A DNA stretch of 43,490 nucleotides from IMG/VR virus record IMGVR_UViG_2778261673_000008, positions 1 through 43,490 of that record. One strand, 5' to 3'. Position 1 is the stretch's first letter. Each line of letters starts with the position of its first letter. The position numbers and the translations under genes are program-made. The stretch comes from a virus (lineage: Duplodnaviria > Heunggongvirae > Uroviricota > Caudoviricetes). Shown here piece by piece: positions 5,436-37,070 of this stretch. The notes under the pieces were generated by a model. It did not search any database, had not been told where the DNA came from, and was given only the letters and a program-made list of their open reading frames with translations.

Positions 5436-5513
5436 TTACCGTTGAGGTAATAATTATGCGTATATGGTTTGATGTCAATAGATATGAGTTAAAAAAATTA
5501 CCCGTTAGGTAAT
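5436..5513. promoter_or_regulatory. Left operator region: two copies of palindrome (A/G)TTACC-N5-GGTAAT
   Basis: GTTACC GTTGA GGTAAT at 5435-5451 and ATTACC CGTTA GGTAAT at 5497-5513, upstream of the leftward early operon. Confidence 0.55.
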
Positions 5514-6208: not shown

Positions 6209-6273
6209 ATTACCCAACAGGTAAATGCACCTCGTGGGTAACTATCCTTGATTTTTGTTACCTTATAGGTGAA
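6209..6273. promoter_or_regulatory. Right operator region between repressor and Cro-like gene (three sites)
   Basis: ATTACC CAACA GGTAAA (6209-6225), weaker GCACC TCGTG GGTAA (6227-6241), GTTACC TTATA GGTGAA (6257-6273). Confidence 0.55.
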
Positions 6274-14335: not shown

Positions 14336-14412
14336 TGGCGTGGCATGCAGGATTCGAACCTGCGACCAACCGCTTAGAAGGCGGTTGCTCTGTCCAACTG
14401 AGCTAATGCCAC
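14336..14412 (-). tRNA. tRNA-Arg (anticodon UCU), phage-encoded
   Basis: Hand-folded cloverleaf: acceptor GTGGCAT/ATGCCAC, D-arm GCTC/GAGC, anticodon stem ACCGC/GCGGT with loop CTTCTAA, T-arm GCAGG-TTCGAAT-CCTGC, encoded CCA. Confidence 0.85.
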
Positions 14413-31341: not shown

Positions 31342-31503
31342 TTAACGAATGCCACCGCCGCCCGGGCGGGAATCCGCAGAACGCCCACCGCAGCGGGAGC
31401 CGTCAGCGGCAGTATCGCTGTCGTGCTGACAACGGCCGGCAAAGGCCTGAGTTGAAGCTACCAGAGACAACAAAACGAACAGTGCAGCAAATGCTTTTTT
31501 CAT
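31342..31503 (-). CDS. Possible small secreted peptide (53 aa)
   Basis: MKKAFAALFVLLSLVASTQAFA signal-peptide-like N-terminus; upstream TTGACG-N16-TATAGA promoter-like sequence; a competing plus-strand ORF exists. Confidence 0.25.
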   Translation of the reverse strand: MKKAFAALFVLLSLVASTQAFAGRCQHDSDTAADGSRCGGRSADSRPGGGGIR

Positions 31504-31573
31504 TGTGAAATTTCCATCTATAAGCCACCTCAATGTGGCGTCAATGAGTGTAGCACTGACTTTTGTTTCGTCC

Positions 31574-31599
31574 ACAAAAAAAGCCCGCAGCGCGGGCTT
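31574..31599 (-). terminator. Rho-independent terminator of the 31598-32137 gene
   Basis: AAGCCCGC-AGC-GCGGGCTT hairpin with 7-nt T-run on the minus strand, overlapping the stop codon. Confidence 0.75.
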
Positions 31600-32137
31600 A
31601 CCAAAACTTGTACCACGGTGATTTATCCTTCAATGGACAATCCTTCCATCGTGTGGCCAACCATTCATATTCTTTAAAATATGTGTTTATGTTTTCTTTT
31701 TCTCTAATGGCTTGTATAAGAGGTAGCGCAATCTGATAGTTATTTACAACGGAGCTGTAAAATACTTCCTTAATCATGGTCTCATCATAAGTTTTCCGCT
31801 TCACGCTCACAGCCATGCGTTCGTAGAAACCTAGACAGTAAATTATTTCTCTCTTCTCTGTCTTTTCTTCATCCGTAAGATCAGCCTGCCCATTGCTTGG
31901 ATACATATAAGAGCGGAATGATTTGTTCGATTCGTGAATGCGGCGCATAGTAGATAGGCCTTTCTTATAATCTACATCAAACCTGCTTTCACCAAGGAAT
32001 ACTGAAGTGTGTACTTTTCTCGCTGTATTTACATTATAAATAATAGTAGCGATAGCTATGAACAAGCCAAGCGAAACCGCGACTGCACTTACTATTTGAG
32101 CCACGGCCATGGCAAATTGCATTTCTTCACTTAACAC
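31598..32137 (-). CDS. AT-rich membrane-anchored protein of unknown function
   Basis: Single N-terminal TM helix then a 150-aa domain rich in Y/K/E; very low GC relative to neighbours; own terminator. Start GTG 32137 or ATG 32122. Confidence 0.5.
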   Translation of the reverse strand: MLSEEMQFAMAVAQIVSAVAVSLGLFIAIATIIYNVNTARKVHTSVFLGESRFDVDYKKGLSTMRRIHESNKSFRSYMYPSNGQADLTDEEKTEKREIIYCLGFYERMAVSVKRKTYDETMIKEVFYSSVVNNYQIALPLIQAIREKENINTYFKEYEWLATRWKDCPLKDKSPWYKFW

Positions 32138-32264
32138 AAACTGTCTCCAGACATGAAAACGGGGCCTAATGGCCCCGTCATTAAACTATCCGAATGTTAA
32201 ACGCCTTCGTACTCGTCAAATTTTCTCATGTGGGCTCCTCCTGTATCGGTGCCTAATCGCTATG

Positions 32265-32281
32265 GATCACCCGTGAGGTAA
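32265..32281. promoter_or_regulatory. Operator-like palindrome ATCACC-N5-GGTAAT
   Basis: ATCACC CGTGA GGTAAT between the Bro gene 3' end and the 32137 gene start. Confidence 0.35.
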
Positions 32282-32346
32282 TAGTAAGCTATTCACCTGC
32301 AATCTGTACAGAATTATTTAAAGGCACATCCCTGTGCCGCCGTCCG

Positions 32347-33057
32347 TCAGAAGAACCCTGCTTTGTCGTTGATATACTCCGCGTGGGTCTGGATATCACG
32401 CAGGCATTTGCTCACACCGACAATGTAGCAGAACATGGTGGTCAGCTCCGCCGCCGCGCCCGATACATCATGCCCGTCGTCCTGCAACTGATTCAGCAGA
32501 TTCATCAGCAATGAGTTCTCCGTCAGGCCGAGAACACCAGACGGCGAATGAATCAGACTGCGGTAGCCGGGCTTCAGTGGGGCACTGTAGGTTTTGTTCT
32601 CTATCTTCATTGCCTGCATCACTGCTGACGCCGTGGCGTTGGCTACCTGGTCGGCAACCATCTTTATGCGTTCTTCCTGCGGGAACGAGTTTTTAATGTA
32701 GCTTCCTGTTCGACGGATCTGAGGAAGTACCTCACCTGTAACCCATTTACGAAAGCGGTAGGGGATAGTGCCTAGTGTCACTGCGTCGCGGCAGCGGAGG
32801 ATCAGTGTGTAGAGGCCTGACTCGGAGATGATGTTGATCTCTTTTACTCGGCTGTCAAAAATTGCACGATGTTCATGCCCTATGTTGAACATAGACCTTT
32901 CATCATCATCCAGTTTTTCAAGTGCTTGGGTGACGTTTTGGATACGCAGCGCACTACAAACGTCTTGGGCTACAAACCATGGTTGGCCATCGATAATGAT
33001 GGAACGGATAGGGTTAACAGATTCAAATTTGAAGATGGCAGTTTGAGCATTAGCCAT
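32347..33057 (-). CDS. Bro-N domain antirepressor-like protein
   Basis: Start taken at MANAQTAIFKFE (GGAG RBS); N-terminal IFKFESVNPIRSIIIDGQPWFVAQDVCSAL is a Bro-N signature; C-terminal domain is paralogous to ORF 34206-34463. Confidence 0.7.
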   Translation of the reverse strand: MANAQTAIFKFESVNPIRSIIIDGQPWFVAQDVCSALRIQNVTQALEKLDDDERSMFNIGHEHRAIFDSRVKEINIISESGLYTLILRCRDAVTLGTIPYRFRKWVTGEVLPQIRRTGSYIKNSFPQEERIKMVADQVANATASAVMQAMKIENKTYSAPLKPGYRSLIHSPSGVLGLTENSLLMNLLNQLQDDGHDVSGAAAELTTMFCYIVGVSKCLRDIQTHAEYINDKAGFF

Positions 33058-33325
33058 GGTGGTTATCTCCACTTAGTGATTTTAATCACCACCGCAACGC
33101 CAATTACTGGTGGTGAACTGGACAAGGTTGGCGTACCGGCCTAAGTGGTACCGGTGTCCTTTCGGACCCCTGCCCAGCCCACCATAATTCGGATATAGCT
33201 GTGCTTAACGCATAAAAAAACCACGTCTGGCGTGGTATGCGCCACTTAGTAACCCGGGACGCCAATCCCGGCACTGGATTTTGCCAGTGCCCGATTACTA
33301 TGGCACAAGAGGAGTGCGATGTAAA

Positions 33326-33435
33326 TTTACCGAAAAGGTAATGATAAGCGCGAATAAATATCAAAATCAACCGTATTTGGTTGATGGAGTTTAATGCTTG
33401 ATCACCTGAAAGCAAGATATTACCTTTAAGGTAAT
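33326..33435. promoter_or_regulatory. Two operator palindromes in the divergent region between Bro and the 33455 gene
   Basis: TTTACC GAAAA GGTAAT (33326-33342) and ATTACC TTTAA GGTAAT (33419-33435, 20 nt before the ATG). Confidence 0.5.
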
Positions 33436-33454
33436 GTTATTGTGAGGAAAAGCA

Positions 33455-34183
33455 ATGGAAGTTTTCTGGATAGTTGTTGGTGTGGTTGCGGTGATTATTT
33501 ACGTTATCAACCAGAACAAGACTAAGATCTCTGATCGTACGGTCGTAAATCATAACAAAACGATAAAGACCGAAGATGGGGAGATAACGATTAATCGTAC
33601 ACAGGTGATAGAACACACCTCTACTCAGTTTCAAAAAACTGGAGGTAATGCGCCTAATATTTCCGCACCTCCTGCTTATGATAGTGCGGTAATCCAGACA
33701 TATTATAAACAGCAGGAGTTAGCAAAAGAGAGGCAACTGATTCAGCCAAAGCCATTTACAGCAGAGCTTCCACCTGGAGTGTCAACGCGTCCGGCATATC
33801 ATGGAAGATTCCCTGGTGATGACACATCGTCTCAGTCATCTAAAAAAGCACCTCAGGCAGTATCAGAGCCAGCAAGAATACCTTCTGTATCGCCGCCAAA
33901 AGAAGAATCAGCTAACAGAGTTTCAAGTGGTAGCAAGCAGTGCTTGCGATGCAGAATAAACCTTCCATATGAAAAATTCAGGAAATCGTCAAAAAATCCA
34001 GATGGATTGACTAAGTGGTGTGCAAGGTGTCTCGATGGCCCAAAGAATACACGCCATATGAAGTGGTGCCCAATTTGTAATGTCCGCAGAAAACGAACCA
34101 GCTTTTACCCTAATAATCAAAATGCGGATGGTTTAATGGCATGGTGCAAAACGTGCTGGGATGAGCACAAAGCGAAACGATAG
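33455..34183 (+). CDS. Membrane-anchored protein with C-terminal tandem zinc-ribbon-like motifs
   Basis: N-terminal TM helix (VFWIVVGVVAVIIYVI), Pro/Ser-rich linker, two repeats of C-x2-C...DGL..WC-x2-C (CLRCRIN...DGLTKWCARC and CPICNV...DGLMAWCKTC). Confidence 0.5.
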   Translation: MEVFWIVVGVVAVIIYVINQNKTKISDRTVVNHNKTIKTEDGEITINRTQVIEHTSTQFQKTGGNAPNISAPPAYDSAVIQTYYKQQELAKERQLIQPKPFTAELPPGVSTRPAYHGRFPGDDTSSQSSKKAPQAVSEPARIPSVSPPKEESANRVSSGSKQCLRCRINLPYEKFRKSSKNPDGLTKWCARCLDGPKNTRHMKWCPICNVRRKRTSFYPNNQNADGLMAWCKTCWDEHKAKR

Positions 34184-34208
34184 GCCGCTCTTGCGGCCTT
34201 TAAATTTA
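34182..34208 (+). terminator. Terminator hairpin between convergent genes
   Basis: AGGCCGC-TCTT-GCGGCCT followed by TTTAAATTT. Confidence 0.55.
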
Positions 34209-34463
34209 CCGGGTTTGTTTTCGTAATTGTTCGGCACAATAGTCGAGATGTGTTTGCAGATCCCGCATAGACATCTGTGAGCTGGTGACGTAGTTAATCA
34301 GTGCAGTCAGTTCGGCAAGTGGGCCATCGACATTAAATCCATCCTTATCGAGATCCCGGAGTAATTTCATCAAGTGCGATCCCTCCACCAGTGACCTGAC
34401 GCCTCCCGGCGTGTGAATCCTTTCGGTAAATCCCTCTTCCAGTGGATAGTGATACTGCTGCAT
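34206..34463 (-). CDS. Small protein paralogous to the Bro C-terminal domain; candidate SOS-controlled antirepressor
   Basis: Start taken at MQQYHYPLEEGF (GGAG RBS); aligns with the Bro C-terminus (HTPGGVRSLVEGSHLMKLLRDLDKDGFNVDGPLAELT versus HSPSGVLGLTENSLLMNLLNQLQDDGHDVSGAAAELT); LexA box 22 bp upstream. Confidence 0.5.
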   Translation of the reverse strand: MQQYHYPLEEGFTERIHTPGGVRSLVEGSHLMKLLRDLDKDGFNVDGPLAELTALINYVTSSQMSMRDLQTHLDYCAEQLRKQTR

Positions 34464-34484
34464 CTTATCTTCTCCATGCAATAA

Positions 34485-34500
34485 CTGTATATTTATACAG
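34485..34500. promoter_or_regulatory. LexA (SOS) box
   Basis: AACTGTATATTTATACAGTAT matches CTGT-N8-ACAG and the TACTGTATATATATACAGTA consensus; lies in the promoter region of the 34206-34463 gene. Confidence 0.7.
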
Positions 34501-34548
34501 TATCAAATAATTTATTTGCTATCCAGCACGTTTTGAAAATTACCTGAA

Positions 34549-34565
34549 AGGTAATATCTGTTCGA
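34549..34565. promoter_or_regulatory. Operator palindrome ATTACC TGAAA GGTAAT upstream of the tailspike gene
   Basis: Identical to the site at 14734-14750; followed by CATATGTGGTT (34594-34604) and GGTAATAAAAT (34610-34620). Confidence 0.5.
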
Positions 34566-34658
34566 ATTCACAGTCTATCTATCCATATGTGGTTTTTCAG
34601 GTAATAAAATAACCGGATATGCGGCGCAACGGGTGCTGCGACTATCTGGAGATTTAAC

Positions 34659-37070
34659 ATGACGGTCTCAACCGAAGTCGACCATAACGACTACACAGGG
34701 AACGGCGTTACCACATCTTTCCCGTACACGTTCCGCATCTTCAAGAAGTCAGATCTCACCGTCCAGGTCGCTGACCTTAACGAAAATATTACGGTGCTGA
34801 CTCTGGATACCGATTACTCCGTTACCGGGGCGGGTACCTATTCTGGCGGGAATGTCGTGCTGATGTCACCGCTGGCCAACGGATGGCAGATTTCTATCTC
34901 GCGCGACCTCCCAGTTACCCAAGAGACTGACCTCCGTAACCAGGGGAAGTTCTTCGCAGAGGTCCATGAGGATGCGTTCGACAAGCTGACCATGCTTATC
35001 CAGCAGTGTTTCAGCTTTCTACGCCTGGCGCTGCGCAAGCCGTCGTTCATCGCGAACTATTATGACGCACTCAACAACCGCATTCGTAACCTTCGTGACC
35101 CGTCACAGGCGCAGGACGCAGCCACGAAGAATTATGTTGATGGGCAGATCGTTGACAACACCAATGCCTGGAAAGCTGGTGATGCCATTCTTGATCAGAA
35201 GATTGACAGTAATTTTGCGAGAACTCTACGGGTTCCAGAAAGCACTGTTGACCAACTAAGCCCGGTATCTGTTCGGAAAAACTCGTTGTTAGGATGGGAT
35301 AGCAACGGAAAGCCAATACCTGTTTTTTCGATGACAGATACAGCAGATCTCGCAATAAAGTTAGCATCTCATGAAGATGGTCTTGGTATGTCTTTGCTGG
35401 GCATGCCAGGGTCTGGATCTTTAAATCAACTTATTGGTAAGTGGACTTGTCCTGAGGCATGGGGCGTTATTACTGATTCCCAGCCAGACGCTCATGCTAA
35501 TTCTAAAAAAATGTTTAATATGTTTGAGTGGTTACGATCTTTAGGTGGCGGTGTAGCATATTTCACACCAGGTAAAACCTATTGGATTGATTTTATTCAG
35601 TTCGTACCCAGCAATGTTGTAATTATAGGATATGGGGCTACGGTAAAACAGATAAACCCATTGTCAATGTATGGTCGTGGTGGTTTCGTTTTTGGGAGTG
35701 GCAGAGAATGGAACTATAAAAAAGCAAAAGCGGCATACAATTCCGGTAATTACCCGTCTTCCGTTGCTGATTCTACGATGGCAGAGTTACCACTGAAATC
35801 TTACCTGAGAGATAATCAGTCTTATGTTCAGTGTGAGAAATGTAAAGTTTATGGCTTGCGCATGTCTGCAGTGTTTACTGATTCCAGCTATTGGGGAGGC
35901 TATGCATTTAATTGTGTTAATGCACAGCATATAAGATTTTTCGATGTGGTTGGTGATGGTTGGACTCAATTGTTTAACTTTGGTAACGATAGTTCTTCCT
36001 CTTCTCCATCTTGTTATGATGTAATTGCAAAAGGTGCTACCGTTGAAAAGGCGGATCTTGTTCGCACTTATTATGCATTTGGTTTTATTGCAAACTCAAC
36101 AGATTGCTGGATTGAAGATTGTGATCTACTTAAGCCTATGACTGCCGGAACTATTAATGGTTCAGGAGCTGCTACAAACTTTGTAGAAAACTGTGGGTTT
36201 AAAGATTTACGAGCTGCAAAATTAGGTCGTACAGTATCTTCGGAGATGGTTCTATTAAATAATGCAAAAGGCTGTCTTGTTGAGAATATAGATGTTGGTG
36301 ACTGCATTAATGGTGTAGCCACCTACTATACTGATGATTCATATAATGATGCTAACATGCCGAATATTATAAGAAACATTTCTGCATCAGCTGATAATGT
36401 TGTCGCTCTTCGTGCAAAATACTCTGTTATTGATGCATTTCATGGTAAGGGGGCATACATAAATGAGTTGTATTTCGCAAATAATAACGCAAGCGGAAAC
36501 AAAATAAATAAAAACCCTAAATCTATAGGCTTTGGTGGCACAAACCTGCAATCATGGTTTTTAACCAATAATACTGTTCTTGGTTGGTTCAGAAGATATT
36601 TTTATTTAAGACCATCAGAAATAATTCTGAACGACAAAGCAGACACATTATCATGGACATTTAACAAATTAGTATCAACAAAAAACGGTGTTGATCTTTA
36701 CTTCATGTGGAGGGTTCCAGATGATATAAAAGCTATTGATGATATAAGAGCTTTTATAAGATTTAACATTTCACCTGATCAGAATGCAGCAGCAGCAGGA
36801 TCTACTGTTGAAGCAAGTTTAATTCAGATGATATCGTTTGACGGAGATATAAATACAGATCCTTACACGGCGTTTTCTAATTCAAAAGTTGCTACATCTG
36901 GAGTTGAAAACACTACAATAGTAACTCAAATGGGGTCAACTGCCCCTGGCTTTGTAAAAATGGCAGATGAAACACATGGACTTGCATATAGTTGGTATGT
37001 GTTATTTAAAATGACACATAACGTAAATAACAATTATATGAAAGAAATCAGAATAGCGGGGTATAATTAA
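34659..37070 (+). CDS. Tailspike / tail fibre protein
   Basis: 803 aa; N-terminal segment of phage-typical GC content, then a long AT-rich C-terminal part with beta-rich N/G/S/T/Y composition. Confidence 0.7.
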   Translation: MTVSTEVDHNDYTGNGVTTSFPYTFRIFKKSDLTVQVADLNENITVLTLDTDYSVTGAGTYSGGNVVLMSPLANGWQISISRDLPVTQETDLRNQGKFFAEVHEDAFDKLTMLIQQCFSFLRLALRKPSFIANYYDALNNRIRNLRDPSQAQDAATKNYVDGQIVDNTNAWKAGDAILDQKIDSNFARTLRVPESTVDQLSPVSVRKNSLLGWDSNGKPIPVFSMTDTADLAIKLASHEDGLGMSLLGMPGSGSLNQLIGKWTCPEAWGVITDSQPDAHANSKKMFNMFEWLRSLGGGVAYFTPGKTYWIDFIQFVPSNVVIIGYGATVKQINPLSMYGRGGFVFGSGREWNYKKAKAAYNSGNYPSSVADSTMAELPLKSYLRDNQSYVQCEKCKVYGLRMSAVFTDSSYWGGYAFNCVNAQHIRFFDVVGDGWTQLFNFGNDSSSSSPSCYDVIAKGATVEKADLVRTYYAFGFIANSTDCWIEDCDLLKPMTAGTINGSGAATNFVENCGFKDLRAAKLGRTVSSEMVLLNNAKGCLVENIDVGDCINGVATYYTDDSYNDANMPNIIRNISASADNVVALRAKYSVIDAFHGKGAYINELYFANNNASGNKINKNPKSIGFGGTNLQSWFLTNNTVLGWFRRYFYLRPSEIILNDKADTLSWTFNKLVSTKNGVDLYFMWRVPDDIKAIDDIRAFIRFNISPDQNAAAAGSTVEASLIQMISFDGDINTDPYTAFSNSKVATSGVENTTIVTQMGSTAPGFVKMADETHGLAYSWYVLFKMTHNVNNNYMKEIRIAGYN

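Follow-up and report, generated by a model that had tools for sequence, protein, structure and literature searches.

A C4 RNA gene and an IsrK-like leader upstream of a Bro-N antirepressor gene

In the viral record IMGVR_UViG_2778261673_000008, whose 43,490 nucleotides (nt) were analyzed in full and are called the window below, an interval of about 270 bp (33073-33340) lies between a minus-strand gene for a Bro-N antirepressor (ant, with its ATG at 33057) and a plus-strand open reading frame (ORF) starting at 33455. Judged by its sequence, this interval is the leader of ant and comprises a C4 antisense RNA together with an IsrK-like leader and its terminator, a copy of a known phage immunity module. 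By the same comparisons the module is of the P1 immI type and resides in an epsilon15/phiV10-like (Uetakevirus) phage. Its peculiarities are the absence of icd, the strength of its IsrK-type terminator and the protein under its control, in which Bro-N is joined to an Ant domain of the SPC32H type. The feature is genuine, conserved and strand-specific, and the curated families that include it have members already studied by experiment; it is not a new kind of system. What had been an unannotated gap thus becomes a defined regulatory unit, through which the silencing of the phage's second antirepressor can probably be explained.

Rfam families were searched permissively over 31500-35000, and the whole window was rescanned at curated thresholds (Table 1). 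Both isrK and C4 scored above their gathering cut-offs, and both were recovered again in the whole-window scan. The 84-nt C4 fold, the largest structure in the leader, has a minimum free energy of -43.1 kcal/mol with its b' and a' sites unpaired, and its stretch gave z=-4.62 on the minus strand versus z=-1.07 on the plus strand. Together with the Rfam E-values and the co-variation of the helices described below, this minus-strand z-score places the region beyond chance. A preliminary description of the DNA, made from the letters alone, had proposed a non-coding regulatory leader for the antirepressor gene; the isrK and C4 matches and the co-varying helices bear this out in outline.

The same description had listed inverted repeats in the interval and read them as independent attenuators or as elements of antisense control. 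All of them are present: GTGATTTTAATCAC at 33076-33089, CACCACC (33087-33093) with GGTGGTG (33109-33115), CACTGG-ATTTTG-CCAGTG at 33272-33289, and CCACG-TCTGG-CGTGG at 33221-33235, with U7 (33220-33214) next to it on the minus strand. The last is indeed a leftward intrinsic terminator upstream of the gene, as had been suggested, and was listed by a terminator scan. The attenuator reading itself gives way to another assignment, in which one is hairpin 1 of the a1b1/IsrK element, a second is the terminator of that element and a third displays a2; the C4 fold was absent from that list, and the palindrome GTGATTTTAATCAC, which is not conserved in relatives, is probably incidental. An antisense RNA does take part, as a trans-acting C4 encoded on the same strand inside the leader and not as a cis-antisense transcript of the opposite strand. 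The interval had also been described as free of ORFs; mechanical ORFs of 34-103 amino acids (aa) do cross it, and none has support. A protein-coding reading of the leader was accordingly rejected, as ORFs such as 33104..33415 are unsupported and substitutions follow the pattern expected of RNA helices.

Table 1. Coordinates of the leader elements, the regulated gene and the Rep and Ant genes in the window (GA, Rfam gathering cut-off; SD, Shine-Dalgarno sequence)
Feature	Position	Strand	Details
isrK (RF01394)	33290-33214	-	Rfam 67.7 bits, GA 50, E=1.4e-13; full model 1-77 aligned
c4-a1b1 (RF03163)	33303-33251	-	Rfam 44.1 bits, GA 46.7, E=3.9e-09
C4 antisense RNA (RF01695)	33189-33106	-	Rfam 63.6 bits, GA 45, E=2.9e-11
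C4 antisense RNA gene	33106-33189	-	17-bp basal stem enclosing two hairpins
Operator palindrome TTACC-N5-GGTAA	33327-33341		1 base upstream of the leader -35 hexamer
Sigma-70 promoter-like site	33297-33325	-	-35 TTTACA 33325-33320, 17-nt spacer, TG-extended -10 CATAGT 33302-33297; promoter scan
Hairpin 1	33290-33271	-	loop GCAAAAUC; 5/7 pairs with compensatory changes
Hairpin 2 of IsrK leader	33270-33255	-	presents a1 UUGGCGU in loop
a1	33265-33259	-	UUGGCGU
b1	33249-33242	-	CUAAGUGG
Intrinsic terminator	33236-33214	-	stem 33236-33220 plus U7 to 33214; terminator scan
b'	33148-33141	-	CCACUUAG, in 9-nt loop of C4 hairpin 2
a'	33134-33128	-	ACGCCAA, single-stranded
a2	33103-33097	-	UUGGCGU
b2	33076-33069	-	CUAAGUGG, overlaps SD GGAG 33070-33067 of ant
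Alternative hairpin	33087-33115	-	CACCACC 33115-33109 with GGUGGUG 33093-33087, a2 in loop
ant, 236-aa antirepressor	32347-33057	-	Pfam Bro-N E=1e-19 (N-terminal); PHROG 'anti-repressor Ant' E=1.5e-55
Rep homologue, 194 aa	5570-6154		5D50_A E=4e-42; two helix-turn-helix regions, no peptidase domain
Small Ant, 85 aa	34206-34463	-	5D50_E E=6e-47, almost identical to solved SPC32H Ant

C4 carries two sites that match the ant leader. Its b' is complementary over 8 bp to b1 and exactly to b2, and its a' over 7 bp to both a1 and a2, so that an upstream copy of the targets (a1/b1) is present in the same transcript as C4. The short a1b1 RNA could form two duplexes with C4, one of 12 nt containing a single mismatch and one of 8 bp, whereas the mRNA could form only 7 + 8 bp. 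The alternative hairpin that holds a2 in its loop uses the 3' strand of the C4 basal stem, and the two are mutually exclusive. By alignment with the annotated P1 c4 RNA, whose mature ends were taken from the P1 record, mature C4 is predicted to span 33183-33109. As a further C4 target elsewhere in the window, the only other copy of CTAAGTGG, at 34011 (+) in a coding region, was rejected: it has no neighboring a site, and chance alone would yield about one 8-mer of this kind. The C4 of phiV10 has CCUUUUAG as its b'; an example of an altered b' for the window is the change of CCACUUAG to CCUCUUAG.

Transcription of the leader is predicted to start near 33290, the position that aligns with position 1 of the isrK model; the way in which the published Gifsy-1 mutants are numbered agrees with a start at that same model position. 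The promoter is kept in relatives as TTTACA-N17-CCATAGT; a second, weaker promoter-like site was found by the promoter scan at 33370-33341. The operator palindrome beside the leader promoter occurs in 10 perfect copies in the window, with far fewer than 1 expected, at the same leader position in 38 of 95 related leaders, and in the ant promoter of SPC32H. On this pattern it is presumably the site of the phage repressor, Rep. A version with an N6 spacer was tried and gave chance matches only, the true spacing being N5.

Conservation of the leader and its likeness to P1 and Gifsy-1

Phage records with a related leader number 241, among them phiV10, TL-2011b, HEMP4 and many Stx phages, and the leader also occurs in 457 of 5426 complete E. 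coli genomes. A scan with the a1b1-core pattern matched at least 119 viral contigs and at least 120 bacterial genomes, the matches listed spanning Enterobacterales, Pseudomonas, Xanthomonas, Vibrio, Aeromonas and some Alphaproteobacteria. At this position phiV10 and TL-2011b carry only a terminator or misc_feature annotation, and RefSeq has nothing annotated under the leader in the E. coli genome records listed.

To assess the helices we aligned 39 leaders with distinct b' regions. Across the IsrK hairpins and C4 helices 99.2% of cells form pairs, as against ~40% in slid controls, and 19 of 35 pairs show compensatory changes, among them 9 of the 17 pairs of the C4 basal stem and all 5 of the inner hairpin. 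For the alternative hairpin that displays a2 the figure is 94% of cells; two of its stem pairs, 218/250 and 221/247, carry compensatory changes, and these co-vary three ways with the 5' strand of C4.

The b sites behave differently from the helices in that they are hypervariable: 159 distinct full-layout leaders hold 85 distinct b' loops, and b1, b' and b2 change together. Pairing was measured as loop-only run lengths, in place of RNAduplex on whole hairpin segments, which was noisy because the conserved CCGG stems pair promiscuously (cognate ranked first in 4-13 of 39; permutations, 0 of 10,000). Over the 85 b' loops, runs between b' and b1 averaged 8.2 bp for cognate and 4.8 bp for non-cognate combinations, and those between b' and b2 averaged 9.4 bp versus 5.6 bp; over all the comparisons made, the cognate b':b2 mean was 9.2-9.4 bp against 5.5 bp for non-cognate combinations. 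Co-variation extends to the a sites: in a few relatives UUGGCA is matched by UGCCAA, and in P1 UUGACAG by CUGUCAA. In relatives b2 always ends in the SD of the next gene, 5-12 nt before the ATG. A hypervariable site that co-varies three ways amounts to a natural address system, and predicts between which co-resident or superinfecting phages cross-silencing or cross-induction can occur.

Among 115 loci, the gene after b2 encodes a Bro-N antirepressor in 72 and a 62-65-aa Icd-like ORF, 34% identical to P1 Icd, in 27; in a few of the other loci it encodes an antirepressor of another type (P22_AR_N, AntA). In the window no icd ORF fits between b2 and ant, as only 9 nt separate the SD from the ATG, and the 72 Bro-N relatives lack one too. 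A subclass of leaders on viral contigs (L007, L012, L013, L024-L029 and others) has a fixed 119-nt spacer from terminator to a', versus about 78-82 nt in the window; this spacer holds a TATAAT-like element, and an Icd-like ORF of 62-65 aa comes next, as in P1. The T-run after b1 is missing in 36 of 243 pattern matches, and the terminator is therefore not universal. The loop of hairpin 1 (33283-33276; alignment columns 9-16) is invariant in all retrieved leaders, though it was fixed by the search pattern; the P1 counterpart is GCAAAUUC, and no complementary partner of the window's loop was found in C4 or the ant leader.

Among the closest known systems is P1, whose record gives, in order, the Oc4 operator, two promoters, a1, b1, c4 RNA, a2, b2, icd and ant, with a terminator-like hairpin between b1 and c4. 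All the RNA parts of the window stand in this order, with a putative Rep operator at the promoter, a parallel to Oc4, and an antirepressor downstream. In P1 and P7, as here, specificity (heteroimmunity) resides in the complementary sequences. The two systems differ in that b2 covers the SD of the antirepressor itself here, whereas P1 has icd, an arrangement that the Icd-like relatives keep. Where P1 has the Ant1/Ant2 pair and a C1 site, the window has a Bro-N protein with an SPC32H-type Ant domain and the TTACC-N5-GGTAA site; the terminator here is a strong one of the IsrK type, the isrK model scoring 67.7 bits versus 35 in P1; and the host is a podovirus prophage here and a plasmid prophage in P1.

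The isrK-orf45-anrP locus of Gifsy-1 is homologous to the window's leader from end to end, including the IsrK hairpins, terminator, C4 fold, a2/b2 and a Bro-type antirepressor. Its 'orf45' (leader L123; NC_010392, 34131-34214, minus strand) is a C4 gene by Rfam (69 bits, GA 45), and the published Gifsy-1 pairs G28-C162 and G31-C159 are exactly a1:a' pairs. The Gifsy-1 locus differs in that an open frame of 45 codons spans C4 and finishes in AUGA where anrP starts, a frame on which the published mechanism depends and for which the window has 14 codons and no coupling, in its b specificity (CGGUGAU versus CCACUUAG), and in the adjoining antQ and isrJ, neither of which is in the window. Gifsy-1 is the only close relative with experiments on read-through, processing and trans-activation (PMC4825925). 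There, both RNAs come from one promoter, with transcription continuing past the terminator (Hershko-Shalev et al. 2016, PMC4825925); STnc1160, a processed RNA of ~80 nt, builds up and is plentiful in lysogens; basal anrP translation is off, and IsrK over-expression raises translation 139-fold and a transcriptional fusion 8-fold (PMC4825925); and C159/C162 (a') mutations derepress more than 100-fold (PMC4825925).

Proposed control of ant and competing explanations

The reading we favor, and regard as quite probable, is that C4 derived from read-through transcripts pairs through a' and b' with a2 and b2, occludes the ribosome site of ant and thereby protects Rep. We favor it because the elements stand in the same order as in the annotated P1 operon, and because b' and a' are unpaired in the fold and complementary to their targets, with b2 on the SD. 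The Rfam scores, the co-variation within and between the RNAs, the antirepressor genes that follow related leaders, the Ant-like fold of the regulated protein beside a matching Rep, and the Gifsy-1 experiments speak for it too. Leftward transcription would begin near 33290, from the promoter beside the repressor operator, and most transcripts would probably stop at the terminator to give an IsrK-like RNA of ~77 nt that carries a1 and b1. Transcripts that read through would carry C4 and the ant mRNA, and C4 would presumably be cut out of them as in P1, where RNase P makes the 5' end. The freed C4 would expose b' in a loop and a' as a single strand for pairing with b2 and a2 in the ant leader; with b2 over the SD, ribosomes would be excluded, the antirepressor would not be made and the Rep of the prophage would stay active. 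Specificity would be set by the b sequence, such that a phage with a different b' would escape silencing. The a1b1 RNA, a copy of both targets, would probably buffer or titrate C4, a role suggested because its pairing with C4 is more extensive than that of the mRNA, and a promoter burst could then switch ant on.

Several observations weigh against this account or parts of it. The c4-a1b1 match falls just below its cut-off, while isrK, which overlaps it, clears its own. With the operator placed at about -51 to -37, either repression or activation could result. C4 and the short RNA share one promoter, so that titration would need different stabilities. Finally, a1 mutations in cis in Gifsy-1 derepress and do not tighten control, which a pure decoy role does not predict; these cis phenotypes argue for some additional function of a1:a' pairing, such as aiding folding or processing.

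Control might instead be exerted mainly on transcription, with C4 acting like the CI RNA of P4: it would pair with a1/b1 or a2/b2 on the nascent RNA and promote termination at the intrinsic terminator or, through Rho, within ant, the ribosome block being secondary. In P1, blocking icd translation causes polarity on ant, which would fit such a mode, as would the position of b1 6 nt upstream of the terminator stem, the 8-fold effect of Gifsy-1 IsrK on a transcriptional fusion, and the P4 analogy raised by the IsrK authors themselves. As described, P4 immunity (CI RNA, seqA/seqB/seqC) likewise uses a small RNA processed from the leader of the operon that it controls, with complementary sites on both sides, but CI causes premature transcription termination of replication genes and does not block translation of an antirepressor. 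In nearly all relatives b2 coincides with the SD, an arrangement that marks translation as the main target, and in Gifsy-1 the 139-fold effect on translation far exceeds that on transcription. We therefore consider a mainly transcriptional role unlikely, and it is in any case compatible with the ribosome-occlusion reading. The published Gifsy-1 model offers a different account, in which the read-through mRNA adopts an inactive fold, short IsrK binds it in trans and frees the ribosome site of 'orf45', and translation of 'orf45' is coupled to the antirepressor start. Published genetics support it in Gifsy-1, and the isrK score in the window is high. The ORF that opens at the conserved AUG (33185), however, is just 14 codons long; its stop falls within the b' loop and leaves 86 nt to the ant ATG, so that coupling through an upstream ORF is not possible in the window. 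The frame is not conserved among 92 leaders, where it ranges from 14 codons to fully open, with an AUGA-type overlap in only 4; 'orf45' is itself a C4 gene, and both the ~80-nt STnc1160 and a conservation seen at the nucleotide but not the amino-acid level agree with an RNA gene. For the window we judge this model somewhat less likely still than transcriptional control.

Two further explanations fare much worse. The good intrinsic terminator between promoter and gene could suggest a simple protein-independent attenuator, or merely incidental hairpins, with no trans-acting RNA; two curated Rfam families, extensive compensatory changes and the three-way co-variation of b would be unneeded by a terminator alone, and this very improbable explanation is already contradicted by the co-variation data. 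The location would also suit a system of the P22 immI type, in which a sar-like cis-antisense RNA on the plus strand crosses the ant ribosome site and acts with Mnt and Arc: like P22 immI, the module is flanked by the ejection-protein genes on one side and the tailspike gene on the other, and a weak plus-strand terminator-like hairpin lies at 33058-33073. The two would also share a logic, in which an RNA over the ribosome site helps to silence the lysogen's antirepressor. In P22, however, sar comes from the opposite strand, and neither it nor Mnt and Arc were found here: no Rfam sar match appeared even at E=10, the 5' part of ant showed no promoter on the plus strand, shuffled sequences fold as well as the plus strand of the C4 stretch does, and no Mnt/Arc-like ORFs flank the region. 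This is the least credible of the alternatives, with almost no weight.

The data also bear on Gifsy-1. We propose, tentatively and as something short of an even bet, that IsrK is the 'a1b1' element of P1, that Gifsy-1 'orf45' is the C4 gene with STnc1160 as mature C4, and that the short terminated transcript is a C4 sponge, an anti-antisense RNA. In the searchable literature IsrK and c4 are handled as separate systems, and no link between orf45 and C4 was found there; the sequence data place the two within a single module. If the proposal is true, P1, Gifsy-1, phiV10-like phages and hundreds of proteobacterial prophages would share a two-RNA switch with a reprogrammable 8-9-nt address in at least 85 variants, and in the present phage that switch would gate an SOS-independent second antirepressor aimed at the same Rep as the LexA-controlled Ant. 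The data suggest that the Gifsy-1 IsrK/orf45 mechanism is worth re-reading in light of P1 c4.

Rep, the two antirepressors and neighboring genes

The ant gene starts at ATG 33057, not at GTG 33072 as in the ORF list. Residues 155-231 of its protein match SPC32H Ant (PDB 5D50 chain E, E=2e-13), and its C-terminus is 41% identical to the window's own 85-aa Ant. By this homology the regulated protein has the Rep-binding Ant fold, the matching Rep is encoded in the window, and Rep is its predicted target. The small ant gene has its own upstream sites: a near-consensus LexA box (34485-34500), an operator (34540-34554) and a second CTGT-N8-ACAG (34558-34573). From these comparisons, the phage has two antirepressors of one fold under different controls.

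In the SPC32H Rep-Ant system (PDB 5D50/5D4Z), of which the window encodes close homologues of both Rep and the small Ant, the small ant promoter likewise carries the operator palindrome, together with a LexA box. Between its tailspike and ejection genes SPC32H encodes no antirepressor but the small ant, whereas the window, phiV10 and TL-2011b add IsrK/C4 and the Bro-N protein, which ends in the same Ant fold. The IsrK/C4/Bro-N unit is therefore an added second antirepressor arm, common to phiV10 and TL-2011b.

The perfect 15-bp palindromes start at 5436, 5498, 6210, 8541, 8603, 11198, 14735, 33327, 33420 and 34540, and six one-mismatch copies exist besides; most sites are intergenic, and some flank rep (the copies at 6210 and 5436/5498). 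They look like the dispersed operator set of an SPC32H-type repressor and recall P1 with its numerous C1 operators.

Divergent from the leader, a plus-strand ORF of 242 aa (33455-34183) has a Rep-type operator just upstream (33420-33434). Its product begins with a hydrophobic segment and carries, toward the C-terminus, two Cys-rich repeats weakly similar to endonuclease VII or Lar-like zinc ribbons (phrog_6762), and the ORF is absent from phiV10 and SPC32H.

The region downstream of the ant stop (32150-32346, minus strand) contains a terminator-like hairpin, GGCACA-GGGA-TGTGCC, with a T-rich tail (~32324-32339), a one-mismatch operator (32267-32281) and then a 10-codon mini-ORF with an AGGAGG SD. 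The preliminary description had likened a hairpin at 32162-32185 to those of the leader. That hairpin exists, with a GGGGCC/GGCCCC stem; lying 160 nt downstream of the ant stop, it belongs to a different unit and is unrelated to the C4 system. An IsrJ homologue downstream of ant gave no Rfam match, unlike in Gifsy-1.

Adjoining the ant module, a minus-strand gene at 31598-32137 encodes a DUF4760 protein (phrog_2284), in the position of superinfection-exclusion or moron genes in P22-like phages. Farther away, the window carries a tRNA-Arg gene (anticodon TCT) at 14336-14412 on the minus strand.

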